Of a stretch of 64,000 nt of DNA, positions 1 through 24,329 are shown in pieces. The notes under the pieces are model-generated. The model saw nothing but the letters and a program-made list of their open reading frames with translations, was not told the origin of the DNA and did no database searches. Every line of letters starts with the position of its first letter. The stretch's first letter is position 1. This DNA comes from Candidatus Poribacteria bacterium (GTDB lineage Bacteria > Poribacteria > WGA-4E > WGA-3G). The position numbers and the translations under genes are program-made. The stretch is from positions 82,741 through 146,740 of the forward strand of contig CAXXUA010000007.1 of NCBI GenBank assembly GCA_963663765.2, given 5' to 3'.

Positions 1-326
1 ACACATACGGATGACACATGCGTAAGGTATTCTTCAATCAATACTATCAGTAATGCTTATTATCTGACTATTTTTAAAAAATAATCCTTACCAACTCCTC
101 AGGGTTGTTTTATGCATATTACACGATACCTGAGAAAATCGCGACCGGCAAAACAAGAAATCCAACGGTATGAATGCGCGTATGGCATTCCCCGGGTATG
201 AATGCCTTTTGGCATTCCCCGGTTCGTTACTACCGCGGGATTTCATTTTTTAGAAATCCGAACATTAGGCAAACTGAATAACCCTACCAATTCCCAAAAC
301 TTCTTGACATAAATTCCCAAAACTTC

Positions 327-356
327 TTGACATATTCATGTTTTGCGTGGTATTTT
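327..356 (+). promoter_or_regulatory. sigma70-like promoter of the GT3 gene; the -35 lies in a 23-bp tandem duplication (289-334)
   Basis: TTGACA (327-332), 18 nt, TATTTT preceded by TG. Confidence 0.5.
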
Positions 357-393
357 AAACAATCTAAAGTTATTGTATAGGTGAGGTGAGAAC

Positions 394-2142
394 TTGAGTA
401 TTGTTGTTCACGTTACACACGAAGCAATCCAAAAAATGGGTGGAATCGGTGCAGTATTGGAAGGGTTGCTAACAACACGTAGCTACAACGAAGGGATTGA
501 GCGTACGTTTCTTGTCGGACCGCTTTTTTCTGGTGCCGATTTAGGAGCATTGGATTCAGTGTTGTATCATGCAGTCGAAGGTATTAGGACAACACCACAC
601 GCTGACGCACTGAGTGATATTGAAAAGACTTTTCATGTTGAAATTGTCTATGGACTAAGGCGTTTTGAAGGTAAAGATCACGAGGTCGTTACACTGACAG
701 ATGTATTGTTGATTGATGTATCTAATGGTAATGTAGACTTAGTGGGTCAGTTCAAGTGGCAACTCTACGAACATTTTGGCATTGAATCAAGCCGTTACGA
801 GAATCAATGGGAGTTTGAGGAATATGTCCGTCTTGCTGAACCTGCTTATGATGCGTTACGGGTACTCATGGGTGAAGAAACCAGTACGCCAGTGTATGTT
901 ATATCACATGAGTTTATGGGGATGCCGCTTGCACTCAAAACGCAGATTGAACGGAAAAACGGTAATGGTGCATCAAATATGCGGACTGTCTTTTATGCTC
1001 ATGAAGTTGCGACAATACGACCTATCGTTGAAGGACATCCCGGTCATGATGTTCGTTTTTACAATGCTTTAGAACAGGCTAAGAATGAAGGTAAGTTAAT
1101 CCGTGACGTGTTTGGGGATCCGTTCTGGTATTACAAGCACGCATTGATTGACAAAGCGCATCTCTGTGATACGATCTTTGCTGTTGGTGATCTTGTTGTA
1201 GATGAACTCCGCTTTCTGTCACAACCGTTTGAATCGTATCCTATCAATCTTGTTTACAATGGAATACCTGCTTTTGAGACGAGTATGGAGGATAAGTTAG
1301 AGTCAAAATCTCGTCTTCAAAAGTATACCAGAACGCTTCTTGACTATCGTCCTGATTATGTATTTACACATGTCACACGTCTTGTCAAAAGCAAAGGATT
1401 GTGGCGTGATCTACAAGTGTTAACACATTTGGATTCACTGCTTGCATCTAATGACAAGACTGCGGTGTTGTTTATTCTATCAACAGAGATTGCAACGGGT
1501 CGTCCACACGAGGATATTCGTGAAATGGAACGTGAATATGGTTGGCCTGTCCACCATAAAATCGGTTATCCTGATTTGGTAGGTGCGGAGATAGAATTGA
1601 ACAATGGTATCTCCGCGTTTAATTTACAGTCTAAAGCAATTAAGGTCGTTTTTGTCAATCAATTTGGTTGGGATCAAGCGTCTTGTGGCACACGAATGCC
1701 AATGGATATGGAGTTTATGGACATTCGTAAAGGGAGTGATGCAGAATTTGGACAGTCAATCTATGAACCTTTTGGTATTGCGCAAGTAGAACCACTTAGT
1801 TTTGGTGCGATCTGTGTTGTCAGCAATGTATGCGGATGTTGCGGTTTCATCCAACGTGCTACTGATAACAACGAGGTGCCGAATGTTGTTATTGCTGACT
1901 ATACGCACCTGAATTCGCCTCCGAAGTCTTTAGAAAATGTCTTGGACATCGGTTTAGCGGAACGGACACAGATTGAAGTTGAGAATAGCCGTGACATTGC
2001 AGCGAAACTTCTTGGTCGTCTACCAAGAAAACAACGTGACGTTGAGGATATGATTAGAGAAGGTTATGAGATTGCCTCTCGAATGAGTTGGGAAGTTGTC
2101 GTTAGGGATTATTTCTTGCCTGGGTTGAAACAGGCGTTATGA
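394..2142 (+). CDS. GT3-family (eukaryote-type) glycogen synthase-like glycosyltransferase
   Basis: N-terminal HEAIQKMGGIG resembles GT3 WEVxNKVGGI; also SHEFM, YNGI, KGL and C-terminal SIYEPFG motifs; TTG start after GAGGTGAG. Confidence 0.7.
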   Translation: MSIVVHVTHEAIQKMGGIGAVLEGLLTTRSYNEGIERTFLVGPLFSGADLGALDSVLYHAVEGIRTTPHADALSDIEKTFHVEIVYGLRRFEGKDHEVVTLTDVLLIDVSNGNVDLVGQFKWQLYEHFGIESSRYENQWEFEEYVRLAEPAYDALRVLMGEETSTPVYVISHEFMGMPLALKTQIERKNGNGASNMRTVFYAHEVATIRPIVEGHPGHDVRFYNALEQAKNEGKLIRDVFGDPFWYYKHALIDKAHLCDTIFAVGDLVVDELRFLSQPFESYPINLVYNGIPAFETSMEDKLESKSRLQKYTRTLLDYRPDYVFTHVTRLVKSKGLWRDLQVLTHLDSLLASNDKTAVLFILSTEIATGRPHEDIREMEREYGWPVHHKIGYPDLVGAEIELNNGISAFNLQSKAIKVVFVNQFGWDQASCGTRMPMDMEFMDIRKGSDAEFGQSIYEPFGIAQVEPLSFGAICVVSNVCGCCGFIQRATDNNEVPNVVIADYTHLNSPPKSLENVLDIGLAERTQIEVENSRDIAAKLLGRLPRKQRDVEDMIREGYEIASRMSWEVVVRDYFLPGLKQAL

Positions 2143-2180
2143 TGACTTAGTAAATTTTAGCACAAAAGGATATTATCATT

Positions 2181-3041
2181 ATGCAAAATGTTCGTAATTC
2201 TCATGAGCCTATGCCGTTGGCTCCTGCTGAGAAGTTGATGGCTCCGGAACAGAAGTTCTTCTTTGATCTTCGTGGTTGGATTTTATTACCATCGGTCTTA
2301 TCGGAATCGGAAATAGAAGTGATGAAAACGGAAGTGTATGCTGGTGCCAAACATTGTTATCAAGGTGCACTTCAGAATTTACTTGATCATCCTGCAATTG
2401 TTGGAATTCTAAATGAAATTGTTGCGGATGAACGTTTTATATTTGATGATTGCTACGGTTTTCGGTGTGAGAATTCGTTTACTACGGTCAGGCAGCCTGG
2501 GTGGAAAACTCCATCTGAAAGAGGTACTGCAGTACCACATGTCGTGCGTCCGCCTCAACAAGCGAATGCAGTGCGGTATCAGGTGTCAGGTGGTAAGATA
2601 TTTGCTGGACTCACCCGTGTGGTTTGGGAACTGGAGGAGGTGAAAGCAGGACAAGGAGGTACTACTTTTCTCACAGGTTCGCACAAGGCTCACTTCAACT
2701 ATGGTGGGCCGGATCCAAATCGTCCGAATATTAGTGAATCACCTTGGGAAGAAAAAATAAAGGATCTGATGGATGACTATAGTTGTCCGGCAGGGTCTGC
2801 GCTTATATTCACTGAAAGTCTGATACATGCGACCAACAACTGGACGAATCCTGACAATCCGCGTTGTGCTGTGTTTAATTGTTACAACTCAATCTGGGCT
2901 CAATGGTATCGGTTGAATCTAAGTCATGAAATAATAGAAAAGATGCCTACAAAACGTCAATCCTTATTCCGTGGGACGTGGGCGATAGGCGGTGGTCCTG
3001 GTGGAAACCGTCAGTATTCGTTGGATAATACGACCAAATAA
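2181..3041 (+). CDS. PhyH-family Fe(II)/2-oxoglutarate dioxygenase-like protein
   Basis: FFFDLRGW, GGT..GSHK, FTESLIH and NPR motifs; tandem paralog of the next gene. Confidence 0.8.
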   Translation: MQNVRNSHEPMPLAPAEKLMAPEQKFFFDLRGWILLPSVLSESEIEVMKTEVYAGAKHCYQGALQNLLDHPAIVGILNEIVADERFIFDDCYGFRCENSFTTVRQPGWKTPSERGTAVPHVVRPPQQANAVRYQVSGGKIFAGLTRVVWELEEVKAGQGGTTFLTGSHKAHFNYGGPDPNRPNISESPWEEKIKDLMDDYSCPAGSALIFTESLIHATNNWTNPDNPRCAVFNCYNSIWAQWYRLNLSHEIIEKMPTKRQSLFRGTWAIGGGPGGNRQYSLDNTTK

Positions 3042-3066
3042 TTCCAAGACTATTAAGGAGATATAA

Positions 3067-3906
3067 ATGTCAAAAGAAACGTTAAATGATGTACCTGTGC
3101 CAATGACTGAAGAACAGAAGTTTTTCTTTGATTTGCGCGGTTGGATTTTATTACCATCATTATTGTCTGACTCGGAAATAGAAGATATGAAAGCAGAAGT
3201 GTATGCAGGGGCAAGGCAATGTTATCAAGGTGCACTTCAATCGCTACTTGACCATCCTGGGATTGTCGGTATTCTGAATGAGATTCTGTCCGAAAACCCT
3301 TTCGTCCATGATGATTGCTACGGATTTAGATGTGAAGGATCATTCACGACTGTCCGAGAATCTGGTTGGAGCAAGTCTTCACGAGGTGACAACGGTTTAC
3401 CACACGTCGTGCGACCTCCACAACAAGCAAATGCAATGCGGTATCAGGTCGCAGGTGGAAAGATATTTGCCGGATTAACACGTGTTGTGTGGGAACTTGA
3501 GGAGGTAAAAGCAGGACAAGGTGGCACCTCTTTTCTAAGCGGTTCTCATAAAGCACATTTCAACTATGGAGGCCCCGATCCCTATCGTCCGAATATCGGT
3601 GAATCTCCTTGGGAGGATAGCATGCGGGAGATGATGGAGGACTATAGCTGCCCACCCGGTTCAGTGGTTATTTTCACCGAAAGCCTTGTGCATGCTGCGA
3701 ATGATTGGACGAATCCTTCTAATCCTCGGTGTGCGGTGTTCAATTGCTATAACTCTATTTGGGCACAGTGGCATCGGTTGAATTTGGGTCATGAGATTAT
3801 TGAAACAATGCCGACGAGAAGACAATCGTTGTTCCGCGGGACGTGGGCGATTGGTGGTGGTCCTGGTGGTAATCGTGCGTATTCACTGGATAATAGCACG
3901 ATGTAA
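3067..3906 (+). CDS. PhyH-family Fe(II)/2-oxoglutarate dioxygenase-like protein
   Basis: same motifs; AAGGAG RBS; highly similar to 2181-3041. Confidence 0.8.
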   Translation: MSKETLNDVPVPMTEEQKFFFDLRGWILLPSLLSDSEIEDMKAEVYAGARQCYQGALQSLLDHPGIVGILNEILSENPFVHDDCYGFRCEGSFTTVRESGWSKSSRGDNGLPHVVRPPQQANAMRYQVAGGKIFAGLTRVVWELEEVKAGQGGTSFLSGSHKAHFNYGGPDPYRPNIGESPWEDSMREMMEDYSCPPGSVVIFTESLVHAANDWTNPSNPRCAVFNCYNSIWAQWHRLNLGHEIIETMPTRRQSLFRGTWAIGGGPGGNRAYSLDNSTM

Positions 3907-3989
3907 AAGAGTTTTGCGTGCTGCTATATCTTATAGTAAAATCCATAATTTTTTGGACACGACGGTAGGTTCGGTTTCCTAACCGAACC

Positions 3990-4435
3990 TAGACGTCAAT
4001 TTAAGTTAGAAGTTCTCTATTCTTGTGTAAGTGAAACCTTGGATGTTCTAATTCCTTCAGATGGCACCTTTATCGTAGGTCTTTCTTTTACCCATAAGTT
4101 TTTGGGTATTGTCCGTTAAGTCTTTTGTGGGTGCCTATTGCTCAAAAACACCTGAAAACTGACCAATATTTTAGATGGTAGAATACCGTTATAGGCTTTT
4201 TAGACAAGTTTCACAAGATTTTTTAGTTCTTATGACCAGTTTTCTGTAATCTATCGGGGTTAGAAACCCCTCCTACAGCAGCATGTCGTGCCTTTGTACC
4301 TCCAATTTGACTTATGGGTAAAAGTAAGATCGTAGGGGCGGGGTTTCCCCGCCCGATTGGTAGTTTGTTTACACGGGCGAGGAGACCTCGCCCCTACGAT
4401 GTGTGCGAGGATTAGCGGACTTAAATAGACGTCTA
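3990..4435. mobile_element. MITE-like element (TAGACGTC[A/T]ATTTAAGT ends) containing a nested element at 4080-4329 and a GTAG REP pair at 4331-4397
   Basis: inverted ends at 3990-4006 and 4419-4435; the inner element has TTTTACCCATAAG/CTTATGGGTAAAA ends and a TCGTAGG direct repeat on both sides. Confidence 0.65.
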
Positions 4436-4448
4436 TGGTGCGGTGTTG

Positions 4449-6509
4449 TTAATTCTGGTCTGCGGCTAATACCAATGCACTTCGGGCAGGGACGTAGAGT
4501 TGGATAGATTGAGTATGTCCCTCTATTGCTACGTCTTGCCAAGGATAATGGACTCCTTCAACTGCACCGAAACCACCAAAATTGGTGTCATCTGTATTGA
4601 GAATGAGAAGGTAATCCCTTTGTTCAGGAACGGGTATACGCCAATCTTTGACAGAATTTGTCGGATGGAAGTTGAAGGCGAACACAAGATTACCGCGCGT
4701 ATAGATTATCTGCTTTGCGTCCTCATGAATGAACAGCAAATGTATGTCATCATCAGAGAGTAAATGGCACTCTGTATCAAGTAGTTGCATGGCGATATCA
4801 AAAGCGTTTAAGTGTTTGTAATAGAGTGTATCATCATCAACGAGAAGCCACTGTCTGCGTGCATACCAGTAGGAGTTGTTGTTACCAGCACGAGGGAAGT
4901 CTATCCATTCCGGATGACCGAATTCATTACCCATAAAGTTGAGATACCCCTCTCCACCTAAGCTAAATGTGAGAAGTCGAATCAGTTTATGCAGTGCTAC
5001 GCCACGTGCAATGCGAAGACTCGGTGTGATCACACTCATATTCGTATAGAGTTCGGCATCCATCAACTGCATTGCAAGCGTTTTGTCTCCGACAATACTT
5101 TGGTCGTGACTCTCAACATAAGCGATGTGTTTTTCGTCCCTACGGCGATTGCGTAACATACCGTATATTTCACCGATGTGCCACTCTTCGTCCATTTTCT
5201 CCTTCAACAACCGGATCCAATAATCTGGTATCCCCATGGCTAATCGATAATCAAAACCGAGTCCGCCTTCATTGATGGGGCGCGCGAGACCGGGCATGCC
5301 ACTCATATCTTCAGCAACGGAAATTGCGTTTGGGTTAACAGCATGGACGACATCGTTTGCTAACATCAGATATGTAAACGCATCTAACTCGACATTGTCA
5401 TCAAAATATGCATCGTAGTGGGAGAACTTTTTGCCAAGTCCGTGATCCTTATAGAGCATGCTTGTAACACCATCAAATCTAAAGCCGTCAAACCTATAGG
5501 TTTCTAACCAATAACGGATATTACTGAGTAGGAACCGCTGTACTTCGTATTTACTATAATCAAAACAGAGTGAATCCCAAGCTACATGTTCTCCTTTTGC
5601 ACCTGCGTGAAAGTATTGATGATCTGTGCCGTCAAAGCGGTTCAATCCTTCGTTGATGTTTTTCACAGCATGACTATGCACCAGATCCATAATGACTAGC
5701 AACCCCATACCGTGTGCAGTATCAATGAGTTCTTTCAGTTCTTCAGGTGTTCCAAAACGGCTTGATACAGCGAAGAAATTACTTACGTGATACCCGAAAC
5801 TTGCATAATATGGATGCTCCATAATTGCCATCAGTTGTATGGTGTTGTATCCTAAATTGGCGATTCTGGGTAGTACGTTTTGTGTGAATTCAACGAATGT
5901 ACCGACCTTTTCATCCTCCTGTGCCATACCGATGTGTGTTTCGTATATGCGTATTCCTTCTTTGTTGAAGTCTAAGTTTGGAACTTGATTTTTCCATTGA
6001 TAGGGATTGGTAGGATGCCAATATTGTCCTGTGAAATCGGTATCATTTTCTTGAATGACGCGCTGGATATATGCCGGGATTCTATCATGCTGACCTTGAT
6101 CAGATCTGACATGTACCTTCACGCGACTTTCGTGCGTGAAGCGATTCGCATAGTGTGTATCGGGTAGAAACAGATGCCAAATACCCCATTTATCCACGGA
6201 CATGGGGTGCGTATCACGGTTCCACTCGTTGAAGTCTCCAATAAGTGATAGGTATTTTGCACCTGGTGCCCACTCGCGATACCACACACCGCTTTCGTCA
6301 TCATTTTCCCCACGGTTGAATCCGAAATAATGATGACCTTGGCTGATTTCACCTAAGATGCCGTCAGTTTTCTCAATTTTTGCTTTGAAACTTTGGTAGT
6401 GCTTATGCCTTTCACGCAATGGTGTTATATAGGGTTTTAGAAGTGGATCAAGTTCAATAAGGTGTGTACCGTCAGATCGCAGTTTTGTCATAGTGGTGAT
6501 AAGTGACAT
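4449..6509 (-). CDS. glgB: 1,4-alpha-glucan branching enzyme, GH13_8 (GBE1/SBE-like) type
   Basis: MEHPYYASFGYHV, SSRFGTPEELK, GFRFDGVTSMLY, YVESHDQ, YLNFMGNEFGHPEWIDFPR. Confidence 0.93.
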   Translation of the reverse strand: MSLITTMTKLRSDGTHLIELDPLLKPYITPLRERHKHYQSFKAKIEKTDGILGEISQGHHYFGFNRGENDDESGVWYREWAPGAKYLSLIGDFNEWNRDTHPMSVDKWGIWHLFLPDTHYANRFTHESRVKVHVRSDQGQHDRIPAYIQRVIQENDTDFTGQYWHPTNPYQWKNQVPNLDFNKEGIRIYETHIGMAQEDEKVGTFVEFTQNVLPRIANLGYNTIQLMAIMEHPYYASFGYHVSNFFAVSSRFGTPEELKELIDTAHGMGLLVIMDLVHSHAVKNINEGLNRFDGTDHQYFHAGAKGEHVAWDSLCFDYSKYEVQRFLLSNIRYWLETYRFDGFRFDGVTSMLYKDHGLGKKFSHYDAYFDDNVELDAFTYLMLANDVVHAVNPNAISVAEDMSGMPGLARPINEGGLGFDYRLAMGIPDYWIRLLKEKMDEEWHIGEIYGMLRNRRRDEKHIAYVESHDQSIVGDKTLAMQLMDAELYTNMSVITPSLRIARGVALHKLIRLLTFSLGGEGYLNFMGNEFGHPEWIDFPRAGNNNSYWYARRQWLLVDDDTLYYKHLNAFDIAMQLLDTECHLLSDDDIHLLFIHEDAKQIIYTRGNLVFAFNFHPTNSVKDWRIPVPEQRDYLLILNTDDTNFGGFGAVEGVHYPWQDVAIEGHTQSIQLYVPARSALVLAADQN

Positions 6510-6541
6510 TGTGTTCTGACTATATTTTGAAAGGTGTTCTT

Positions 6542-7942: not shown

Positions 7943-9046
7943 TTAGTTGGAATTTCGTTTCCATTGTGCATATCGTTGTAGTGTTCGGATATCAATTTCT
8001 AACGATTTTGCAGCTTCACGTAATGATGTATGATTATCTATACGCAAAGTTGCAACTTCAGAAAGAATTTGGTTCTGATTCATATTTTGAATATCTATAG
8101 ATTCACTATGCACATCCGATTGATTATCTATCGAATTCCTATCGCTATACCAGGGTTGTGGTAATTGTGTTGAGAATTCATGCGTGATGATATGTTGCAT
8201 TTCTGGATGAAGTGCATCCCATATTGCATGTTGTGTTTCGTTAGAGAGTTCACCCCATAGCGTTATTAGTGTTTGTAGGTAATCTGGATAGATATTTGGA
8301 AAATCCTTGAGTTCAAGTTTTTCTGCTGTTGTTAGTGCGATAGCTGTTTGTATTGTACTTCTCAGCTGCCGTATGTTACCTTTCCATGCCGCTTGTTTCA
8401 GACGTTTTAGTGCCTCTATAGTGATTCCAGACACATCTTTATCATATTCAGCACTAAATTCATTGATAAAAGCATCTATTAATGGAGAAATATCTTCTGT
8501 TCGTTCGCGGAGTGGTGGTAGATGAATCCTCATACCTTTCAGACGGTAGTATAGGTCTTCTCTAAAGTGTTTTTCAGCGACGTCCTTTTCAATGTCTCTG
8601 TTCGTTGCGGTGAGTATATGAACATCTACAGTTAATATTTGATTTCCCCCAAGTCTGGTGAATTTTGATGTGTCTAAGACGCGTAGTAGCATTTTCTGTG
8701 CATCCATTGACATTTCAGGCACTTCATCTAAAAAGAGAATACCTCCATTTGCGAGTTCAAATGCCCCTTGTCTTTGTCGTATTGCACTTGTAAATGCGCC
8801 AGCTTCATGACCGAATAATTCACTTTGTAGGAGTTCTGTTGAATATCTTCCGCAATTGATTGCTACAAAAGGTTTTTCCTTCCGCTGACTATTTTCATAA
8901 ATATACTTTGCAATTCCTTCTTTACCTACTCCTGTATCACCTGTAATTAAGAATGGAATATTTGAATTTACAACCTGTTTTATTTTCGTATATATCATTT
9001 GCATCTGTTTAGATGGCAATTCGATGTAAGTTGGTTGCATGTTCAT
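7943..9046 (-). CDS. sigma54-dependent enhancer-binding protein (AAA+ and HTH, no N-terminal sensor)
   Basis: GDTGVGKE, ELFGHEAGAFTSA, LFLDEV, LTATNRD, FREDLYYRL, WKGNIRQL, C-terminal HTH. Confidence 0.88.
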   Translation of the reverse strand: MNMQPTYIELPSKQMQMIYTKIKQVVNSNIPFLITGDTGVGKEGIAKYIYENSQRKEKPFVAINCGRYSTELLQSELFGHEAGAFTSAIRQRQGAFELANGGILFLDEVPEMSMDAQKMLLRVLDTSKFTRLGGNQILTVDVHILTATNRDIEKDVAEKHFREDLYYRLKGMRIHLPPLRERTEDISPLIDAFINEFSAEYDKDVSGITIEALKRLKQAAWKGNIRQLRSTIQTAIALTTAEKLELKDFPNIYPDYLQTLITLWGELSNETQHAIWDALHPEMQHIITHEFSTQLPQPWYSDRNSIDNQSDVHSESIDIQNMNQNQILSEVATLRIDNHTSLREAAKSLEIDIRTLQRYAQWKRNSN

Positions 9047-9836: not shown

Positions 9837-10002
9837 CAAGACTTACGTAGTTTTCTTGATTTAATCAAGAATTATGATGAAAATGATGTAATTATCAGCA
9901 ATCTTATAGGTTTCCAGCGCGCTTACAAAGCGGCAAATCAAGAAATCAACGGCAAGAATGCCATTTAGGCATTCACCGCCTAACGTTTTTGCGTAAGTCC
10001 TG
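9837..10002. mobile_element. MITE with IS701-type ends (CAGGACTTACGCA family)
   Basis: CAAGACTTACGTA...TGCGTAAGTCCTG flanked by an ATGTTT direct repeat; internally similar to the 14532 and 20595 copies. Confidence 0.8.
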
Positions 10003-10350: not shown

Positions 10351-11227
10351 GAGCGTATCTCATAAATATTTTAGTGACATACGTATGCAAGCAAGAAGTA
10401 CAAAACCTAAATAATTTTCAGCGTAGTATTCCCAACGAACAACTAAACGCCGATAATCCTCTAACCAACTGAAAAATCTTTCTACTTTGAAACGACGCTT
10501 ATACCGTCGTAAACGCCGACCATCCTGTGTAGCCTGTTTTTTACGATTCTTTTTATGAGGTGCTACCATTTCAATACCACGTTCCCTCAAAGAAGCATCT
10601 AAAGGATCAGAGTCATAAGCTTTGTCCCCAATCAACACTGCGGGGTTTTCGGATGTCCAACACGCATCCAATGCCGGTTCAACCAAGCGCACTTCATGAC
10701 AAGAAGCCTTTGTAATCAGAACACTCACAGGTCTACCAGACTTTTCTGTAATCGCTACCAGTTTTGTCCCTTTGCCGCACTTCGTTGGACCAACACAAAT
10801 GCCTCCTTTCTTGGCAGGAACGAATTTCGCATCAATACAACACTCACTCATATTTATTTTTTTTCGTTTTTCAAGCATTTCTGTGAGTACCATTTGAACT
10901 TTTTCAAGCGTTCCATCCGATGACCATTGCTGAAAACGACGATGACAGGTTTGATAGGGTGGATACTTTTCTGGTAAATCCCGCCAGGGAGCTCCTGTTC
11001 GCAACACCCACAGTATCCCATCTAACACTTCTCTATTACCACGCCAAGGTCTCCCCGGTTTATCCGATGGTGGTTCTGGCATTAGGGGTTCAATAATTTC
11101 CCATTCCTTATCACTAAGTTCCATTCAAATCATCCCCTTACTTATAGTAGAAATAGATATAGTTTAGCAGAGATGATGAGAAATTAAAAGAAAAAATCAA
11201 ACCATTTAATATTTATGAGATACGCTC
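10351..11227 (-). mobile_element. IS5-family (IS427-like) insertion sequence
   Basis: perfect TIR GAGCGTATCTCATAAATATT / AATATTTATGAGATACGCTC, TA on both flanks. Confidence 0.9.
10360..11124 (-). CDS. IS5-family transposase, single ORF
   Basis: LRTGAPWRDLP, GDKAYDS, RRFKVERFFSWL, RRLVVRWE. Confidence 0.92.
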   Translation of the reverse strand: MELSDKEWEIIEPLMPEPPSDKPGRPWRGNREVLDGILWVLRTGAPWRDLPEKYPPYQTCHRRFQQWSSDGTLEKVQMVLTEMLEKRKKINMSECCIDAKFVPAKKGGICVGPTKCGKGTKLVAITEKSGRPVSVLITKASCHEVRLVEPALDACWTSENPAVLIGDKAYDSDPLDASLRERGIEMVAPHKKNRKKQATQDGRRLRRYKRRFKVERFFSWLEDYRRLVVRWEYYAENYLGFVLLACIRMSLKYL

Positions 11228-11388: not shown

Positions 11389-11602
11389 CACATATCGTCC
11401 CTACCAAATCAACGCCAAATGCGCCAAATCAACGGTATGAATGCCATTAAGGCATTCCCCGTATGGCATTTGTCGGGACTAAAGAGGATGTACTATGACG
11501 TTTTTCTATAAACATATCGTCCCTACCAAATCAACGCCAAATGCGCCAAATCAACGGTATGAATGCCATTAAGGCATTCCCCGTATGGCATTTGGCGGGA
11601 CT
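11389..11602. repeat. two REP units 122 bp apart, each carrying doubly nested micro-insertions
   Basis: CATATCGTCCCTAC^GGGACT host interrupted at 11405-11474 and 11527-11596. Confidence 0.85.
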
Positions 11603-13818: not shown

Positions 13819-14520
13819 TTATTTTGTTTCATCAGTGTCTACTTGACCGTCTCTGAGCGTGATTAAGCGTCTTGCACTATCCATAACCATTGGGTCATGC
13901 GTTGAAAAGATGAAAGTCATATCGGTTTCATCATTGAGTCGACGCATCATTTCAAGTAGGTCACTGCCAGTTTTTGAATCAAGGTTTGCGGTTGGTTCAT
14001 CTGCAAGAATGATAGTAGGTTCAGAGACCATTGCGCGTGCAATTGCAACCCGTTGTTGCTGTCCTCCTGATAGCTGGGTAGGTAGTCTGTCCTCCACCCC
14101 CTCAAGTCCAACAGCCTCAAGCATTTTCTTGACTCTTTCGTGACGTTCCCCTTTTGACACACCGGCTAAAAGCATAATGTATTCCACATTTTCTTCAACT
14201 GTCAAGACTGGAATTAGGTTATATGCTTGGAAGATAAACCCGATGTTGTCGCGTCGAAAATCGGACAGTTCATTTCCGTTCATTTCAGATATGACTTTTC
14301 CAGAAAGCCAAACTTTACCTTCAGTGGGTGAATCTAAACCCGAAATGATATTTAGGAAGGTCGTTTTTCCAGACCCGGAGGGACCGACGAGTGCTGTAAA
14401 TTCTCCTGATGTGATAGTTAGATCTATACCGTTTAAGGCATTAACGGGAATGCCATCCGGATCAAATATTTTTATTACACTATCAGTAACAATTACTTCA
14501 TGATTTTGTGTTTGTTCCAT
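13819..14520 (-). CDS. ABC transporter ATP-binding protein (LolD/MacB-like)
   Basis: GPSGSGKT, LSGGQQQRVAIARA, ADEPTANLD. Confidence 0.93.
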   Translation of the reverse strand: MEQTQNHEVIVTDSVIKIFDPDGIPVNALNGIDLTITSGEFTALVGPSGSGKTTFLNIISGLDSPTEGKVWLSGKVISEMNGNELSDFRRDNIGFIFQAYNLIPVLTVEENVEYIMLLAGVSKGERHERVKKMLEAVGLEGVEDRLPTQLSGGQQQRVAIARAMVSEPTIILADEPTANLDSKTGSDLLEMMRRLNDETDMTFIFSTHDPMVMDSARRLITLRDGQVDTDETK

Positions 14521-14531
14521 AATGTTTCCTA

Positions 14532-14896
14532 CAGGACTTATGCAGTTTTCTTGATTTAATCAAGAATTATGATGAAAATGATGTAATTATCAGCATTTTT
14601 AGAGGTTTCCAGTGCGCTTACATGAAGATTAAAAAAATAATTAGGTAATTTTATCTAACCTACCCTGGTAGGCGTGCTTTGTAAGCGCGCTGGTACATCA
14701 AGTCCCAAGAGTGCGCTTACAAAGCACCAAATCAAGAAATCAACGGTATGAATGCCATTTAGGCATTCCCCGGGTATGAATGCCATTTAGGCATTCCCCG
14801 CCTACCGTATGAGAAATATTTATTACCCAATTAATAAATTAATCTAATAAATTAATCTTCATCAAAGCGCGCATACCGTTCGGTGCGTAAGTCCTG
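14532..14896. mobile_element. IS701-type MITE carrying nested elements, inserted inside the ABC operon
   Basis: CAGGACTTATGCA...TGCGTAAGTCCTG, TCCTA target duplication; nested ATGAAGATTAA element at 14622-14862 and micro-element at 14728-14799. Confidence 0.88.
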
Positions 14897-14898
14897 TC

Positions 14899-16128
14899 CT
14901 AAAAACTACGTCGCATAGCATCAACAGGTGCTATCTTTGCAGCGTGCCATGCAGGATATAAACCTGCGATGATTGTAAACAAGAATACCGCTATAGGATA
15001 AAGTATAAATTGTTGGATGTTAAGAACAGGATAAATGTACTCTTGTATTGTAACCCCCATCATCTCAATACCGGTATAGTTTATACCGAGATGTGCAAAC
15101 AGTGTGGTTAATCCAAAACCGATGATACCTCCCAAGATAATGCTAACTATTGCTAAAGTACCCGCTTCAAATAAGAGGATTCGTGCCATGCCAAAAGGTC
15201 GTGTTCCAACTGCGCGTAACACACCAAACTCAAACATACGTTCATAGAGCGACATAAAAAGCGTGTTGATAATCCCAAAGATAACGACTCCAAATAACAC
15301 CACTCCCATTATGTACTTGCTATATTTCGACATGTCCAGAATTGTCTTTAATTGTGGCAGTATTTCAGCCCAACTTAACGCTTCATTACCATATTGGGAA
15401 TATGTATTCCAAAAAGTTAATTCTTGGTTATGCGCGTAAGTTGTTGATGTGAATTTGATTGCAATTTCATGAACATTGTTACCAATTGCAAGCATCTGTT
15501 GTGCTTTTGAGATTCGAACGAATGCCATACCAGTGTTCATTGCTTCGTCAACAAAGTGGAATATACCAGAAACACGAAACCTTTCTTGTGAAAGTTCACC
15601 GCTTTCGGATTGTGTTATGGTTACGACCACACGGTCCCCGATACCAATTTCCAAGTTTTCTGCAAGTTTCGTTCCGATGATGATATCCCGGCTATCATTG
15701 CCTTCAAAGTATCTACCTTCCGTAATTGCATCGTCTATTTGTGATAAGTATCTTTCTGTAGATGGCTGAACGCCAACAAGGTTAATCGCGCTCACATTTG
15801 CTGGTGATGTAATCATACCTAAGGAAAAGGTTCTACGCGTAAAATAGTGTACATTGGCTTCCTTTGCCAATTTTGCGGTAACTTTCTCAAGTTCTTGAAT
15901 AGTCAATGATACTTCTTGTTCGTCTTGGTAACCTTTGCGATGTATTTGTGCGTCGCCGAGGAAAGACGCGGTAGCAGTTTTAATCATATTTTCTGTCATC
16001 CCAATCATGAGTGCGTCAACAAAGATTAGGGCAGCCAGACCGATACCGATAGCAATGGATGCGATGATGGTGCGGCGTTTGTTTCGTAAAAGGTTTCTCC
16101 AAGCGAGTTTGAATAGGATGAAGAACAT
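14899..16128 (-). CDS. ABC permease, FtsX/LolC-E family
   Basis: AWRNLLRNKRRT, ERMFEFGVLRAVG, YPAWHAAKIAPVDAMR. Confidence 0.92.
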   Translation of the reverse strand: MFFILFKLAWRNLLRNKRRTIIASIAIGIGLAALIFVDALMIGMTENMIKTATASFLGDAQIHRKGYQDEQEVSLTIQELEKVTAKLAKEANVHYFTRRTFSLGMITSPANVSAINLVGVQPSTERYLSQIDDAITEGRYFEGNDSRDIIIGTKLAENLEIGIGDRVVVTITQSESGELSQERFRVSGIFHFVDEAMNTGMAFVRISKAQQMLAIGNNVHEIAIKFTSTTYAHNQELTFWNTYSQYGNEALSWAEILPQLKTILDMSKYSKYIMGVVLFGVVIFGIINTLFMSLYERMFEFGVLRAVGTRPFGMARILLFEAGTLAIVSIILGGIIGFGLTTLFAHLGINYTGIEMMGVTIQEYIYPVLNIQQFILYPIAVFLFTIIAGLYPAWHAAKIAPVDAMRRSF

Positions 16129-19026: not shown

Positions 19027-19042
19027 GCGTAGAGAAAGTGAA

Positions 19043-19594
19043 CTAAAAATATGCATGTATACCCGCACTGACATAAACGCCAGCAAGACCTTCAGATTGA
19101 GAATTACTGTTTTCTCTACCAATACCTTGACCAATACCCACGTTCAAGCCAAGTGGAATTCCACCCAGCGAAAACACAAGCTCACCACCAAAAGCTATTC
19201 CAGCAGCCAGTGTTGATATATTAACAGTTTCATTCTGCATATTCACCTCAGATTGAAATCGCCACCCACCTTCCAACGTGAAATATAACCGTGCTTGGTT
19301 CCATTTACCTTGATGCTCATATATTGCATAGGAAACCCCAGCACCTAACATGTGGTCACCAATCTGATCGTTTAGAATAAAACGTCCGACCGCTTGTAGG
19401 TATACAGGTTTCAGTCCATTGTATTTGAAACTAATGCCACCATATGCGGGTGTAGCACCATGAGAACCGATACCGAAGTTCTTGGTTAAGTTTGATTCTT
19501 GTGCTTGAGCAGAGAAAACAAGAAATAGACTCATTATGAATATAAGTCGTGAAACGGAAACTATCTGTTTTTTTTGTGTTGTATTGTATATCAT
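19043..19594 (-). CDS. small putative outer-membrane beta-barrel protein
   Basis: signal peptide ending AQA, Gly/aromatic beta strands, C-terminal HAYF. Confidence 0.65.
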   Translation of the reverse strand: MIYNTTQKKQIVSVSRLIFIMSLFLVFSAQAQESNLTKNFGIGSHGATPAYGGISFKYNGLKPVYLQAVGRFILNDQIGDHMLGAGVSYAIYEHQGKWNQARLYFTLEGGWRFQSEVNMQNETVNISTLAAGIAFGGELVFSLGGIPLGLNVGIGQGIGRENSNSQSEGLAGVYVSAGIHAYF

Positions 19595-19630
19595 TGTTAC
19601 CTATATTTAATAATCTGATGTGAAAATTTG

Positions 19631-20455
19631 TCATCTTCGTTTCTGCAGATTTCTACGTGTGAAGATATTATCGTCAACCTTTGAATTGAATGTAGCATTT
19701 AACCATTTGACAACCGTTTTGTGTCCCTCTTTGTTTTGTGGAATCATTTCCATGACCGTTGGGATGGTTTTCTTGTTAAAAGTTTTGATTTCTTTGTAGT
19801 TCAACACACGCATTAAATTATCTTTTTCGTCGTAGAAATGCTGCCAAACCGGTAAGTAGTCGCTTTTTCTGACAGCAGTTTCAATCTTACCCCATACAAT
19901 TGCAGTGTCCTCTTTTGGAATAAGTTCTACATATAGCAATTTTGGGGATGCATCTTCTGGTGTTATCATACGGTAGGTATAGTCGTCCAGCATAGATGAT
20001 TCTTTGACTAAATCATCATTGGTGAAATCGGACCCCATCCATGAACCCATCATCATTGATGGTGAAATCTTTATTACCTTGTTGACTTTTGGGAGATAAT
20101 TCCACATCTGTTTTCCGATGCGTAATGTAGTGACATTTTCCTCTTTTTTTGGTGCAGTAATTCGTATGAAGGTTTTGTCCATCCCCTTTGTCCAAATCAA
20201 CATTTTCAATGTGCGTTCGTAATTTGGTGTGACGATGTGCATCTCCATGTCAGCATGACTTGTATTACTGCGGTAAAGTTGATCTATGTGTTTGATTATG
20301 TCTTCAACTTTGGAATCTGCTGATACATTCGCTGTCAATAAAGATGATAAAGAAGTCAAGAGCACAAATAGTAATATTAACCATGTGAAGTGTTTTGGAT
20401 GACTTTTTATATAAGTGAAATAATGAGACCACACCGTTTTTTCCTCTATTACCAC
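19631..20455 (-). CDS. LolA-like outer-membrane lipoprotein-sorting protein
   Basis: MWNYLPKVNKVIKISPSMMMGSWMGSDFTNDDL, FTRRNL. Confidence 0.85.
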   Translation of the reverse strand: MVIEEKTVWSHYFTYIKSHPKHFTWLILLFVLLTSLSSLLTANVSADSKVEDIIKHIDQLYRSNTSHADMEMHIVTPNYERTLKMLIWTKGMDKTFIRITAPKKEENVTTLRIGKQMWNYLPKVNKVIKISPSMMMGSWMGSDFTNDDLVKESSMLDDYTYRMITPEDASPKLLYVELIPKEDTAIVWGKIETAVRKSDYLPVWQHFYDEKDNLMRVLNYKEIKTFNKKTIPTVMEMIPQNKEGHKTVVKWLNATFNSKVDDNIFTRRNLQKRR

Positions 20456-20594
20456 AAAGCTTATTTACATATCTGATTATACAATTATAATACTTCAAAA
20501 TGATATACAGTGCAAGGTATAATCTGAGTGTCGTATGTATAGAGTTTTGTACAATAATTATTTTTGCGCGTAATTTGCGCCGCTGAAATACAAT

Positions 20595-20716
20595 CAGGAC
20601 TTACGCAGTTTTCATGATTTAATCAAGAATTGTGATGAAAATGATGTAATTTTCAACATTATTTGTGCTTCCAGCGCGCTTACAAAGCAAACCTACCGTT
20701 GGGTGCGTAAGTCCTG
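20595..20716. mobile_element. IS701-type MITE, uninterrupted (empty) form
   Basis: CAGGACTTACGCA...TGCGTAAGTCCTG; no matching flanking duplication seen. Confidence 0.8.
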
Positions 20717-21403
20717 CTATGTAAGGAATCACTGCAAATTGTATGTGCATTTCTTGAGATTTCCTAAGAATTTTCTACTACTAAAACCGTACCGTACGGT
20801 ACGGTTTTTTCGGTTTGTGGTACGGTTTTGAAAACATGTAATGCGTCCAGTGCTTATAAGGCGTTATCGGGGTATTTGTTGTGTTTTTTTCTAAATTATT
20901 TTCAATTTTTGGTACGGTTTTTTGTTTATGTGTTTTTTTGTGTTTGGGTGTTGGTTTTGCATAGTGTTTTTGTTGTGTGCTTTTCTTTTGTTTATATTAT
21001 ATGTGATTTTTTATGGGTTTTGTAGTTTTTTGGGTGTCTGTTTATTGGGATTTCCAATAGATAAGCAATAGATATCAATTAGGTTCTTGTTAGTAGTATA
21101 TTTTGTCTGAACCAGGATTCTCAAATCAAGAAAAGAAGAAATCAACGGTGTGATTGCCCTATGGCATTCCTCGAGTCTTTGTGTTCCCGCTTTTGTTTCC
21201 ACTCATCAGAGATGGCGGGGAATGCCATATGAAGATTAATAAATTGATCTTCATACAGGTTGTGCTACAACACAAGCAGTCGTTTAGGTTTGTTAAACAT
21301 ATAGATCAAAGTGTTCAGGTAATTCTAAAATCTACTATAACTTTCAGTAAATCTCAATATTATACCATTTTCATGTAATAATGTCTCATTAGCAGCGGAA
21401 ATC

Positions 21404-21765
21404 GGGTGTGTAAAGTTTTGGTTACTGAGCGTAGGGGCGGGGTCTCCACGCCCGAACAGAAACTTTACGCAAGCGAGGAAATGAAGATTAAAAAATACTT
21501 TGGGTAATTCTCCTAATCCCGCCACGGTAGACGAACTATTCCACCCTGGTATGCGTGCTTTGTAAGCGCGTTGTTAGAACTTGACATCCAGCGCGCTTAC
21601 AAAGCACGCATATCAACTGAGAAATATTTGATTACCCAATTTAATAAATTAATCTTCATAACCTCGCCCCTACGATGTCCACAGTTCCCTAACGTCAAGC
21701 AAGCTTTATAGCAACTGGACGGACTTCTTTTAATATCAGGGTTTCTACAAAAATTTTACACACCC
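21404..21765. mobile_element. MITE with GGGTGTGTAAA ends and a 9-bp GCGGAAATC direct repeat; contains a nested ATGAAGATTAA element at 21481-21659
   Basis: GCGGAAATC at 21395-21403 and 21766-21774; a second left end follows at 21775; a reverse empty copy at about 27697-27820. Confidence 0.8.
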
Positions 21766-21900
21766 GCGGAAATCGGGTGTGTAAAGTTTTTGCACAGAGG
21801 TACTAACTTTTGTTCTCTTTAGTCCCGTAGGGACGCAATGTTTATAGAAAGACGTTATCACATCCCCTCTCTTTAGTTCCGTAGGAACGACATAGAAGGA

Positions 21901-22078
21901 TAAACATATCGTCCCTACGGGACTAAAAAGACGTGGGGATATGTCTTTCTATAAACATATCGTCCCTACGGGACTAAAAAGACGTGGGGATATGTCTTTC
22001 TATAAACATATCGTCCCTACGGGACTAAAAAGACGTGGGGATATGTCTTTCTATAAACATATCGTCCCTACGGGACTG
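21901..22078. repeat. 51-bp perfect tandem repeat (3 full copies plus a partial fourth) of a REP-like unit
   Basis: TAAACATATCGTCCCTACGGGACTAAAAAGACGTGGGGATATGTCTTTCTA at 21901, 21952 and 22003, partial at 22054; inverted related copies at 21820-21890. Confidence 0.92.
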
Positions 22079-22119
22079 AAGAATATGGTTAATATTAACA
22101 ATATTTCTTTATATTGACA

Positions 22120-22263
22120 CCTAATGAAGTTTGACAATCAAAATCGGTAGTTGAATTCGTAGGGGTTGGGTTCCCCAACCCGTTTGGTTTCTGGGTTTGC
22201 GTAGATCATGTGTGGAAACCATGCCCCTACGAATACACAACTTGAACGTCAAACTTCATTAGG
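22120..22263. mobile_element. MITE with CCTAATGAAGTTTGAC ends enclosing a GTAGGGG REP pair
   Basis: 16-bp perfect inverted ends. Confidence 0.7.
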
Positions 22264-22578
22264 ACTCTGTGTCCGCAATCTCTCATTTAATCAGTTGCGG
22301 CGGGGCACAGAGACCCGGGGAATGCCAAAAGGCATTCATACCGTTGATTTCTTGATTTACCGGTCGCGACTGTGTTGAATACGGTTGCGACTACCAGCAT
22401 GCGATGGACATAATCAGAGTAATCTGGGATTGTGTCTGAACCAGGATTCACAGGATTATCGGATTTGCAGGATTAGAGTTTTGTTCGTTATCCTCCTATC
22501 CAAAAGTAAGCATAAATACACATCAAACACCCGTGCCAGGGTAAATCTGTAAATCTGTAAATCCCGCGGAATGCCCTT

Positions 22579-22633
22579 TGGCGAATGCGCTTGGTAGAAT
22601 ACGCGTATGGTATTCTACCAAGCGCATTCGCCA
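22579..22633. repeat. perfect 24-bp-arm palindrome inside a micro-element loop
   Basis: TGGCGAATGCGCTTGGTAGAATAC-GCGTATG-GTATTCTACCAAGCGCATTCGCCA. Confidence 0.9.
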
Positions 22634-22785
22634 TGATTCATACCGTTGATTACTTGATTTGGTCATTCCGTACACACCGACTCGACAACAGCAGAGATTG
22701 ACACACAGTGTTTAGATAATGAACACTGCTGATCAAATTGTGACACAATTTGGTTGAAATTTGCTGAATTTCCAATGATTCACTT

Positions 22786-22801
22786 TGGCACGATATTTGC
22801 T
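22786..22801 (+). promoter_or_regulatory. sigma54 -24/-12 promoter of the WD40 lipoprotein gene
   Basis: TGGCAC-GATAT-TTGCT, about 35 nt upstream of ATG 22836; palindrome CAAATTGTG-A-CACAATTTG at 22734-22752. Confidence 0.72.
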
Positions 22802-22835
22802 CATAGTTTTGTTATATTTTCAAAAGGGGTTTATT

Positions 22836-23834
22836 ATGAATAAAGGATTTTTGATACTTAGCATACTGCTCTCCATGATGTTCGTTGCGTGTGGCGACGA
22901 TGAGGATACGACTGTCAATCAAATGGATATGGAAACCCCAACTGTCAAAACTTATGATACAGAGATACTCGTAGGGCATACGGATTTTGTCAGAAGTGTT
23001 GCGTTCAGTCCGGATGGCAACACACTTGTCAGTGGCGGGGATGACCACACCCTCCGCTTGTGGGACACAAGCAATCGCGCGCTTATCCAGACCCTCACTG
23101 GACATACGGATGCTGTTGAATACATCGCGTTTAGTCCGAATGGTCGTACTATCGCCAGTGGCAGTAGCGACAAGACCGTCCGGTTGTGGAACGCAAACGA
23201 TGGCATGCATCTCCACACCCTCACTGGGGAAATGTACCAAATCTTTTGCGTTACGTTTAGTCCGGATGGTCGCACTATCGCCAGTGGCAGTTGGGGCGGC
23301 ACCATTCGTTTGTGGAACGCAAGCGACGGCATGCTTCTCTACACCATTGACGCGCATAGGAGAGTTACCTTGAGCGTAACGTACAGCCCGGATGGCAACA
23401 CACTTGTCAGTGGCGGTCTTGATGGAGCCATCCGGTTATGGCACCCACGTATTGGCACCCGGCTCGATCTCCTATATAAGCAGCAGGGGAGTGTCATGAG
23501 TATCGCATACAGTCCGGATGGCAATACTATCGCTAGTGCCGGTAGTGACAATACCATCCGTTTGTGGAACCTATATTACAACATCAATATCAGCACGTTG
23601 AAGGGGCATACAAGTTGGGTCAACAGCGTTGCGTTCAGTCCGGATGGTCGCCTACTCGCCAGTGGCAGTCGGGACGGCACCATTCGTTTGTGGAACGGAA
23701 GAAACGGCATGTATCTCGACACCCTCACTGGGCATGAGGCGATTGTTTTGAGTGTTGCGTTCAGTCCTGATAGTCGCACGCTTGCTAGTTGCGGTGAAGA
23801 CAACACCGTCCGATTGTGGGATGTGAGTGAGTGA
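22836..23834 (+). CDS. WD40-repeat lipoprotein (single 7-bladed propeller)
   Basis: lipobox FVAC; seven GH...FSPDG...W[D/N] repeats; AAGGGG RBS. Confidence 0.9.
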   Translation: MNKGFLILSILLSMMFVACGDDEDTTVNQMDMETPTVKTYDTEILVGHTDFVRSVAFSPDGNTLVSGGDDHTLRLWDTSNRALIQTLTGHTDAVEYIAFSPNGRTIASGSSDKTVRLWNANDGMHLHTLTGEMYQIFCVTFSPDGRTIASGSWGGTIRLWNASDGMLLYTIDAHRRVTLSVTYSPDGNTLVSGGLDGAIRLWHPRIGTRLDLLYKQQGSVMSIAYSPDGNTIASAGSDNTIRLWNLYYNINISTLKGHTSWVNSVAFSPDGRLLASGSRDGTIRLWNGRNGMYLDTLTGHEAIVLSVAFSPDSRTLASCGEDNTVRLWDVSE

Positions 23835-23957
23835 TGCTGGTACCACCACAACCCAATGTAGGGCGAAATCAAAGGTATGAATGGGCGCATGGCATTCCCC
23901 GGATTTCGCGGATTGGTGTACGGAATCACGGATTACGCGGAGGATGTCTCACGTGTT

Positions 23958-24022
23958 GGTAGGAGCGACCTCCTGGTCGCGACTGTGTTGAAGCCGGTCG
24001 CGACCAGGAGGTCGCTTCTACC
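23958..24022. repeat. GTAG-type REP pair (GGTAGGAGCGACCTCCTGGTCGCGAC family)
   Basis: related copies at 139-234, 22311-22395, 24225-24292, 27831-27874, 39790-39815 and 56274-57566. Confidence 0.8.
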
Positions 24023-24329
24023 AACGTGTAAGTTCCATCTGCGTAATCCGCGATTCAGAACGTCCAATCTGCGTCCTCTGCGATTCTGCCCGATATTTTT
24101 CTGCTTAGGATATGTATTTTCTACGCAATCCGCCCTCATGGGGGTATCTTCTCCGCGTTTTCCGTGAAATCTGCGTAATCCGTGATTCCGTACCCCAGAG
24201 TAGCGGAGTACATTCCCCTGCGTTGGTAGGAGCGACCCGGGGAATGCCCGAAGGCATTCATACCGTTGATTTCTTGATTTACTGGTTTCGACCGTGTATC
24301 TTTCTTGTGGGAGGGGTTATCAACCCCGA

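Follow-up and report, generated by a model that had tools for sequence, protein, structure and literature searches.

A leader-tagged hairpin micro-element of Poribacteria nested in REP- and MITE-type repeats

The small dispersed repeats SDR1-8 of Nostocaceae, reportedly units of 21-27 nt according to Elhai et al. (2008), are the closest described counterparts of the element treated here. How repeats far smaller than a MITE (miniature inverted-repeat transposable element) move has been an open question since those cyanobacterial small dispersed repeats (SDRs). In two later papers, SDR origin is still listed as unresolved in 2011 (PMC3116915), and in 2018 nothing SDR-like is reported for cyanobacteria enriched in the palindrome HIP1 outside Nostocaceae (PMC5861425). 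Here we describe element A, a hairpin micro-element found in a 64,000-nucleotide stretch of a Candidatus Poribacteria genome (the window; contig CAXXUA010000007.1 of assembly GCA_963663765.2, C7:82741-146740 in our numbering). The genome, G000, comprises 6.35 Mb at 40% G+C. Element A places an analogous system in an unrelated phylum, with a sharply defined sequence, about 95 species of two genera and 0-351 copies.

Each unit of element A consists of a leader, [N]AAATCAA followed by optional GAAATCAA octamers and a C, and then an imperfect hairpin with a GGTATGAATGCC arm, a 3-8-nt loop and a GGCATTCCCC arm, after which the next base is nearly always G. The hairpin unit measures 26-27 nt, or 35-36 nt with its leader, and as single-stranded DNA the 36-nt unit is predicted to fold at -6.9 kcal/mol (z -3.3). 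An earlier note on this DNA had claimed ten copies, none of them after 25 kb, in which the stem is kept. All ten loci indeed carry the leader and hairpin module, amounting to 12 canonical hairpin units and one triple-nested copy at 22566-22661(-), for which the single-stranded prediction is -32.7 kcal/mol (z -10.2). The 12-mer of the 5' arm matched the window 13 times with up to 2 mismatches, compared with 4.45 +/- 2.03 matches in shuffled sequence, and 13 matches were reached in 0 of 100 shuffles. Allowing up to 3 substitutions per arm, we found no real unit past 24281 in the window; the other hits in that scan, on the minus strand, were a weak match at 23186-23213 and a palindromic self-match at 9953-9979. 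Stem conservation was confirmed as well: across 586 units, stem pairs 6-9 are at least 97% invariant, the stem being preserved chiefly through sequence identity, and compensated double changes are restricted to two loop-proximal pairs (23 and 35 units, which are non-independent copies). Rfam and tRNA scans of the window gave no match.

The element A family spreads independently of its host repeats and is more than a passively copied section of a single composite. We surveyed 176 Poribacteria genomes with the exact A 19-mer AATCAACGGTATGAATGCC. In the window's genus (g1) it was present in 38 of 39 species, and in a sister genus (g13) in 57 of 65. The remaining genera of the family had it in 0 of 7 species, and the 64 genomes outside the family held one single copy. 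Copy number among congeners ran from 0 (G003) to 351 (G000). The corresponding 19-mer of a sister family, B, was found in 34 of 39 species of g1, 10 of 65 of g13 and 1 of 1 of g12, and in none outside the family. The main host of A in G000 is a GTAG-tagged repetitive extragenic palindrome (REP), GCGCTTACAAAGCAC^GCCTAC, with 884 exact copies there and 0-3 in each of 30 congeners; these counts point to a very recent, species-specific expansion of this host-1 REP. Because A is genus-wide and the host-1 REP species-specific, A must have entered the young REP family secondarily. The host-1 REP (GCGCTTACAAAGCACGCCT) also forms tandem arrays in G000, with a 32-nt period and about 30 units (C2:50452-51430, C3:5921-17629 and C3:82605-83352).

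The surroundings of A are varied. Passive copying inside one composite repeat would leave a single ancestral flank, and no one flank is common to all copies: flanks fall into 49 clusters in G000, and the 99 arrays of other species have 79 distinct flanks. Some G000 copies are chimeric, joining one host's left flank to another host's right flank. Filled and empty versions were found for 16 host contexts (11 in G000 and 5 in other genomes; eight relatives in all). The homologous MITE site ..CCTAC^GG.AC holds B in G000, where 598 copies are empty and 112 filled, whereas G056 and G057 have A there. In the host CACCCC-NCT-GGGGTG, the hairpin found at one and the same spot, with an identical junction, is that of A in some copies and of another type in others. 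The idea that A parasitises REPs and MITEs thus stood: it is a discrete unit that spreads independently of its hosts and lives almost only in repeats of the REP, REPIN (paired-REP) or MITE type. Most individual copies are passengers that multiply with the host repeat, since loop subfamilies follow host classes: 40 of 92 ATTTA loops lie in AAGCAC|GCCTAC and 27 of 44 ATTAA loops in the B loop, with 28 of 33 for GCGTAT and 12 of 16 for TATT. The TTTT subfamily has 17-19 different flanks per ~30 copies. Just 17 of 518 G000 arrays have two unique 40-nt flanks.

The earlier note had proposed a comparison of filled and empty orthologous sites, which we made at window 14250-15350. Here a 365-bp composite (14532-14896) is built on three levels: a REPIN with A lies in a MITE with TGAAGATTAA ends, which in turn lies in a MITE with CAGGACTTA.GCA ends. 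Relatives lack the whole composite and the two genes abut there, with 0-8 nt in the intergenic space that it fills, which indicates turnover of the composite rather than of A alone. In four public short-read runs holding the region, no contig spanned an element, so that these runs do not bear on filled/empty polymorphism; their contigs end at every repeat (for example, they stop at 14571 and resume at 14816 or 14833). A and the REP and MITE families it has invaded break short-read assemblies of these sponge-symbiont genomes at every copy. Viral contigs were set aside as carriers, their one 19-mer match being a chance match in coding-like DNA with the 3' arm absent.

Across G000, A amounts to 642 hairpin units. 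They are grouped into 518 arrays, of which 416 are single, 88 double and 10 triple, with a maximum of 7 units; 485 of the arrays have a leader of 1-6 octamers. A further 101 copies carry a non-canonical hairpin; 42 of them share a 51-nt form whose loop holds a nested, inverted A-like hairpin. The leader is common to four hairpin types (A 466, B 126, D 17, C 12), and the B, C and D hairpins differ from that of A through paired stem changes. Arrays with one octamer comprise 266 single and 5 double arrays, and those with two octamers 91 single and 67 double arrays; in mixed double arrays, the TTTT unit is mostly the leader-proximal one. These in-register arrays and the position of the TTTT unit suggest that incoming units tend to insert at the junction between leader and hairpin of a copy already in place. 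Self-targeting occurs at that junction or at the 3' end of resident copies, giving octamer and hairpin arrays. Head-to-tail copies (CCCC followed by CAAATCAAC) occupy 28 chromosomal sites, and a circle junction CCCC|CAAATC is therefore uninformative by itself. One such array, C6:362510-362788, has at least seven complete leader and hairpin units head to tail at a 36-nt period and contains a spurious frame (GECLNGIHTVDL repeated).

Insertion of A into genes in frame was considered and rejected, as for all 34 of the 518 arrays that lie within crude open reading frames (ORFs), either the frame itself derives from repeats or the array sits at an ORF end. The search for a long copy with both A ends, another proposal of the earlier note, yielded no autonomous copy among those of G000. 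A 1.7-kb interruption of an A loop at C15:316403 was examined as a candidate and proved to be an ordinary DDE insertion sequence (IS) with a 5-bp duplication. This 1.72-kb IS, with terminal inverted repeats (TIRs) GCCTACACTCCGCAG..., sits at C15:316403-318160 in the AT-rich loop of an A hairpin, where ATTAA is duplicated; G000 has six copies of it (this one and five other sites) at 98.8-100% identity.

The junctions combine constant ends with variable joining. Neither TIRs nor target-site duplications (TSDs) were found in any filled/empty pair of the 16 host contexts, so the asymmetric ends without TIR or TSD claimed at the outset hold in every pair examined. Six contexts show exact insertion of CAAATCAAC...CCCC between C and G, and in the other ten 1-3 host bases are lost, or a G or donor-flank bases are gained (Table 1). 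One formula covers 16 of 16 contexts: 0-3 host bases are replaced by N + AAATCAA...CCCC + G, with 0-2-nt overlaps at either end. Five G000 classes have, at their filled right junction, the flank bases of abundant donor classes (CCCC|GCCTAC or CCCC|GGG(T)), and there are four symmetrised palindromic variants. Among the 79 distinct flanks of other species, G occupies +1 in 93% and C occupies -1 in 54%; the leader's first base is variable (C 40, T 16, A 13, G 10). No 4-5-nt target is conserved at the left flank; in the reverse orientation, the last base alone is fixed. A palindrome with a stem of at least 5 bp spans the site in 12 of 68 flanks of other species, compared with 2.1 (maximum 6) in a re-paired control, and in 5 of 49 G000 classes compared with 2.6, which is no clear enrichment. 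Element A prefers N^G steps, often C^G, in REP, REPIN and MITE repeats and in its own copies. The proposed C^G specificity was accordingly right as a frequent pattern, clean in 6 of 16 contexts, and wrong as a strict rule, 10 of 16 being inexact.

The empty sites that had been named are present in the window: AAAGCAC^GC at 21607|21608, CCCTAC^GGGACT at 21918|21919, GGAATCAC^GGATT at 23929|23930 and the empty MITE at ~39793-39808. Two of them need rereading. CCCTAC^GGGACT is an empty site, but of B rather than A; the A copies at 11425-11460 and 11547-11582 lie in the B loop GCGC^GTATGG. Locus 130-283 does have an empty homologue at 39781-39864, but its junction is not clean (GACC-AGGAGG-TCGC when empty, GACC-GG[...]GG-TTCG when filled).

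Our favoured explanation, tentative and not quite probable in our judgement, is that A and its sisters B, C and D form an SDR-like non-autonomous micro-element that leaves its source as a copy with fixed ends and is then joined in imprecisely, as a patch. The unit would be [C]AAATCAA(GAAATCAA)nC + G-hairpin-C (+G), and its propagation DNA-based and in two steps, as we infer. A first, sequence-specific copy-out step would produce the constant ends through a conserved trans-acting factor other than a Y1 transposase or a reverse transcriptase. Such a factor is suggested by the constant ends and by the 9-nt leader, kept across hairpin types and about 95 species, where an ordinary REP is species-specific. 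In a second step, the copy would be patched in imprecisely by template switching or short-patch repair with 0-5 nt of junctional homology, replacing 0-3 host bases and at times bringing donor-flank bases along. Variable junctions, donor-flank carry-over, chimeric flanks and symmetrised variants point to such repair-type or templated joining rather than a precise transposase. A few dozen primary events were followed by passive multiplication of most copies with their host repeats. Ku-dependent end joining was rejected as the patch-in route because Ku (PF02735) had no match in any of the 176 genomes; classical bacterial non-homologous end joining was likewise not found in this phylum sample.

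Several points weigh against this explanation. The copy-out step is pure inference, and filled copies of a host class may share one event, leaving about 16 events rather than hundreds. The six exact C^G insertions of the 35-36-nt unit are simpler under a precise enzyme, and random template switching alone does not explain the constant ends. Insertion at palindrome tips is no more than a tendency. Horizontal spread among co-resident symbionts, or a cellular function, could also account for the conservation across species. A bolder version, which we regard as doubtful, is that leader-tagged modules of ~36 nt (A-D) propagate themselves by an undescribed pathway that uses neither reverse transcriptase nor Y1 enzyme: a conserved factor would read the 9-nt leader and any G...C hairpin and copy the module out, and the unit would home to C^G or N^GG in structured repeats.

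It is also conceivable, if unlikely, that no dedicated factor exists and that slippage, template switching and homeologous gene conversion among hairpin repeats, together with passive amplification, produce the whole pattern. Donor-flank carry-over, junction microhomologies and chimeric flanks would follow naturally, as would variation in tandem arrays and the symmetrised variants, which are typical of quasi-palindrome correction. The missing matches to Y1, reverse transcriptase, IS110 and Ku in the genomes searched fit this explanation as well; an IS110 transposase had no match in G000, and element A has no link with any of these four. Such processes do not readily account for ends that vary by no more than 1-2 nt although well over 50 unrelated flanks from several species are involved, for an identical 9-nt leader before four different hairpins, or for an exact 19-mer in about 95 species when the ordinary REP of G000 is species-specific.

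A cellular role is distinctly unlikely. Element A would then be chiefly a cis-element, for example a site for an architectural protein beside a hairpin, as in the IHF-binding bacterial interspersed mosaic elements (BIMEs) of E. coli, kept by selection and shuffled by recombination. The strong conservation of sequence, beyond structure alone, over two genera is consistent with this, and so is the extragenic placement implied by the 34 of 518 ORF-internal arrays that are repeat-derived or at ORF ends. Each leader octamer (for example in 14728-14744) may match the core of the IHF consensus. Against a cis-element, A shows no preferred orientation relative to flanking genes: crude ORF calls give 162 co-oriented and 154 antisense cases, with 137 lying between divergent ORFs and 56 between convergent ones. 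The range of 0 to 351 copies among congeners is also unexpected for a cis-element; self-nesting and arrays of up to 7 units better fit a selfish element.

The earlier note had assigned A to HUH/Y1 chemistry, as in IS200/IS605 and the REP-associated tyrosine transposases (RAYTs). On this model, a minimal IS200/IS605- or REP-like element would be moved as single-stranded DNA by a TnpA or a RAYT encoded elsewhere. The note's statement that no mobilising gene lies in the window was borne out, and the absence of TIR and TSD, the hairpin beside a conserved single-stranded tag and the six exact insertions are what such an enzyme would leave. G000 also encodes candidates: four IS605 copies of 1753 nt with tnpA (139 aa) and tnpB (370 aa) at C5:688634 (L098), C3:287718, C5:550867 and C5:353059, and three RAYT loci, one of them intact. 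The left and right ends of IS605 share no common motif with A, and each RAYT locus lies beside a REP family other than A. The Y1 domain PF01797, searched in 31 congeners, had no match in G001, G010, G024 or G041, which hold 82, 94, 97 and 30 exact copies; conversely, 3 matches go with 0 copies in G003, and 21 matches with 3 copies in G009. In G017, at least 39 kb separate the sole Y1 match (at 315 kb) from the closest exact copy. The absence of a conserved 4-5-nt left target (C at -1 in 54%) and the ten inexact junctions also speak against a Y1 enzyme, as does the single hairpin. Neighbouring copies within 400 nt have the same orientation in 122 cases and the opposite one in 11, at no preferred spacing, so REPIN-type doublets are not formed. 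We consider HUH/Y1 mobilisation very unlikely. Separately, a 1316-nt IS, itself present in more than 10 copies, interrupts one of the four IS605 copies.

Strand bias gave no support to Y1 mobilisation. The closed chromosome of G017 has no replichore bias, with 52+/48- among the first 100 places listed, and neither has that of G022 (21+/17- versus 19+/15- on the dnaA-defined halves, the terminus being assumed opposite dnaA). G000 contigs do contain long tracts of one orientation (34+/102- on C5), with switches at ~300 kb on C6 and ~780 kb on C4; on C5, C4 and C6 these turning points fall at extremes of the cumulative GC skew, and on C13 and C15 the relation is the opposite. We set this bias aside as a replication signal because the copies are clustered, the skew is weak and the two closed chromosomes are unbiased.

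RNA-mediated retro-insertion, as proposed for cyanobacterial SDRs, is suggested by that analogy and is highly implausible: the reverse transcriptase domain PF00078 had no match in 18 of 31 genomes searched, including G000, G017 (164 copies), G001 and G024, and wobble-preserving single changes show no strand asymmetry (26 forward versus 42 reverse). That A is not mobile at all, but a fixed internal part of composite repeats, has next to no likelihood: loop subfamilies that follow host classes and the 17 of 518 arrays with two unique flanks are what passive copying predicts, but A ranges far wider than its main host and occupies dozens of unrelated hosts, each also found empty, so that pure passivity is refuted for the family as a whole and true for most individual copies.

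If self-propagation is true, A would be a second, independent SDR-type case, in a phylum with many closed genomes. Genomes without Y1 and reverse transcriptase matches that carry 80-100 intact copies are natural "knock-outs" of the usual suspects; in G001 (97% complete, 4 contigs) and G024 (92%, 1 contig), neither domain was found and each has ~80-100 intact copies. With a sharply defined sequence, a wide copy range, closed chromosomes and these natural "knock-outs", phyletic profiling and population-level detection of insertions are feasible. Table 1 collects the loci, the host contexts and other genes of the window.

Table 1. Element A, its hosts, insertion contexts and neighbouring genes. 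Plain positions refer to the window; positions with a contig prefix refer to G000; ^ marks the insertion point.
Feature	Position	Strand	Details
Element A	149..220	+	degenerate two-octamer leader 149-166; GCGTAT-loop unit 167-193; G 194; TTTT-loop unit 195-220; in loop of GCGACC/GGTCGC-type REP within larger MITE; junction against empty homologue not clean
Element A	9934..9977	+	two-octamer leader 9934-9950; degenerate unit 9951-9977; host-1-type REP variant CAAAGCGG|GCCTAACG
Sister element B	11405..11474	+	leader and GCCAAATGC-GCGTAT-GGCATTTG.C hairpin; at CCCTAC^GGGACT of MITE; element A in loop
Element A	11425..11460	+	one octamer; ATTAA-loop unit; clean C^G insertion in B loop GCGC^GTATGG (class 2)
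Second element B	11527..11596	+	built like 11405-11474; holds element A 11547-11582
Host REPIN	14667..14727	.	left REP 14667-14693 (GTAGGC^GTGC site empty); right REP 14710-14727 (filled)
Element A	14728..14799	+	two octamers 14728-14744; two ATTTA units 14745-14771 and 14773-14799; at AAAGCAC^GCCTACC, REPIN right arm
Degenerate element A	21122..21172	+	interrupted leader 21122-21146; unit 21147-21172 with 2+1 substitutions
Element A	22317..22359	-	TAAATCAA+GAAATCAA leader 22343-22359; TTTT unit 22317-22342; chimeric flanks, left of GCGACC REP class, right of GGGTCTCTGTGCCCC class
Element A with two extra hairpins nested in its own hairpin	22566..22661	-	as single-stranded DNA, 24-bp perfect stem within A stem
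Element A	23865..23900	+	leader GAAATCAAA; GGGCGCAT in loop region; left flank TGTAGGGC; right flank GGATTTCGCGG-type repeat
Element A	24239..24281	-	TAAATCAA+GAAATCAA leader 24265-24281; TTCG unit 24239-24264; in loop of GCGACC/GGTCGCTCCTACC-type REP
Empty host-1 site	21594..21613	+	CTTACAAAGCAC^GC...
Empty B-host MITE site	21910..21924	+	CGTCCCTAC^GGGACT
Empty loop of MITE (filled at 149-220)	~39793..39808	+	GCGACC-AGGAGG-TCGC
RAYT	C4:621400-622077		intact; four class-4 REPs precede at 118-nt spacing
RAYT pseudogene	C10:24955-25277		at contig end, apparently frameshifted, behind ten host-1 REPs
RAYT remnant	C5:1704530-1704673		truncated, among GCGACC REPs
Exact context			AAAGC[AG]C^GCCT[AG]C; 426+689 empty, 96+35 filled
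Exact context			B loop GCGC^GTATGG; 57 empty, 48 filled
Exact context			GAATACGC^GT.TGG; 11 empty, 3 filled
Exact context			CGTAGGTC^GGGTAGAG; 33 empty, 3 filled
Exact context			B host site CCCTAC^GGGACT; 598 empty, 112 filled
Exact context			CGTTCCTAC^GGAAC
Inexact context, host 3			empty GCTTACAAAG (GCTTAC), n=288; filled GCCTACAAAG (GCCTAC) in 26/28
Inexact context, class 4			empty GCTCCTACAG, n=98; filled GCCTACAG, n=15
Inexact context, class 3			empty GAGGTCGC, n=514; filled GGGTCGC, n=13
Inexact context, class 5			empty CAGGATT, n=115; filled GGGATT, n=11
Inexact context, class 6			empty GGGGTCTC, n=22; filled GGGTCTC after G-starting leader, n=9
Inexact context, class 8			empty CTC-CC-GGTC, n=84; filled CTC[...]GGGTC
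Inexact context, G050 host			empty CAC-A-GGGA; A lost when filled
Inexact context, four genomes			empty ACCC-ATA-GGTGT; filled ATA[AATCAAC...CCCCG]GGTGT
Inexact context, CACCCC hairpin			empty loop NCT; CT replaced when filled
Inexact context, CCCCCTAAATCCCCC... host			empty TC; TC replaced when filled
Sigma-54 activator gene	7943..9046	-	
IS5-type transposase gene	10360..11124	-	
7-bladed WD40 protein gene	22785..23834	+	internal repeats
Another DDE transposase gene	25772..26830	-	

Set against known systems, element A resembles the REP/REPIN-RAYT repeats in being a short extragenic hairpin with a conserved 5' tag and hundreds of copies. According to PMC3733652, REPs carry a GTAG or CGTC tag at the palindrome's foot. 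Element A has no such tag: GGTAT precedes the stem in A, and G directly precedes it in B, C and D. It differs further in having no cognate RAYT, the three loci of G000 being accompanied by class-4 (C4), host-1 (C10) and GCGACC (C5) REPs, and no inverted doublets at fixed spacing (11 opposite versus 122 same). It is kept over two genera where its host REP is species-specific, and it inserts into REPs; the true GTAG-tagged REP/REPIN families with RAYT genes in G000 are the main hosts of A. With IS200/IS605, A has in common the absence of TIR and TSD and ends that depend on a hairpin, but it has a single hairpin and imprecise junctions, targets no conserved oligonucleotide, and shows neither strand bias nor co-occurrence with tnpA. 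Like MITEs, it is small, non-autonomous and multicopy, but it has neither TIR nor target duplication and about one third of their usual minimum size, and the real MITEs of G000 host it. Element A fails the tested defining features of REP/REPIN-RAYT and MITEs, and those of IS200/IS605 except for the absence of TIR and TSD.

The BIMEs of enterobacteria and the BOX elements of pneumococci are mosaic modular repeats. Element A has a similar modular grammar, with variable numbers of octamers and hairpin units; we know of no report that BIME or BOX mosaics nest a fixed unit in dozens of unrelated repeats, as A does. A literature search that included a term search of PMC3909097, with subscription papers and supplements outside its scope, found no earlier description of such repeats in Poribacteria. 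From the SDRs, A differs in its constant 9-nt leader with an expandable octamer, in lacking HIP1 context (29 HIP1 sites in the 6.35 Mb of G000) and in the absence of a reverse transcriptase match in G000. The rarity of HIP1 and the sigma-54 activator of the window also indicate that the host is no cyanobacterium. Element A belongs to another phylum, which makes it an analogue at most and not a member of SDR1-8. The likeness is nonetheless broad: both are very small hairpin units (26-27 nt for the A hairpin) that form families differing in sequence with a common structure, encode no protein, and move by a mechanism that is unexplained in each case. SDRs reportedly lie in MITEs, near short tandem repeats and within their own copies, and so does A, as in the 42 copies of its 51-nt nested form.

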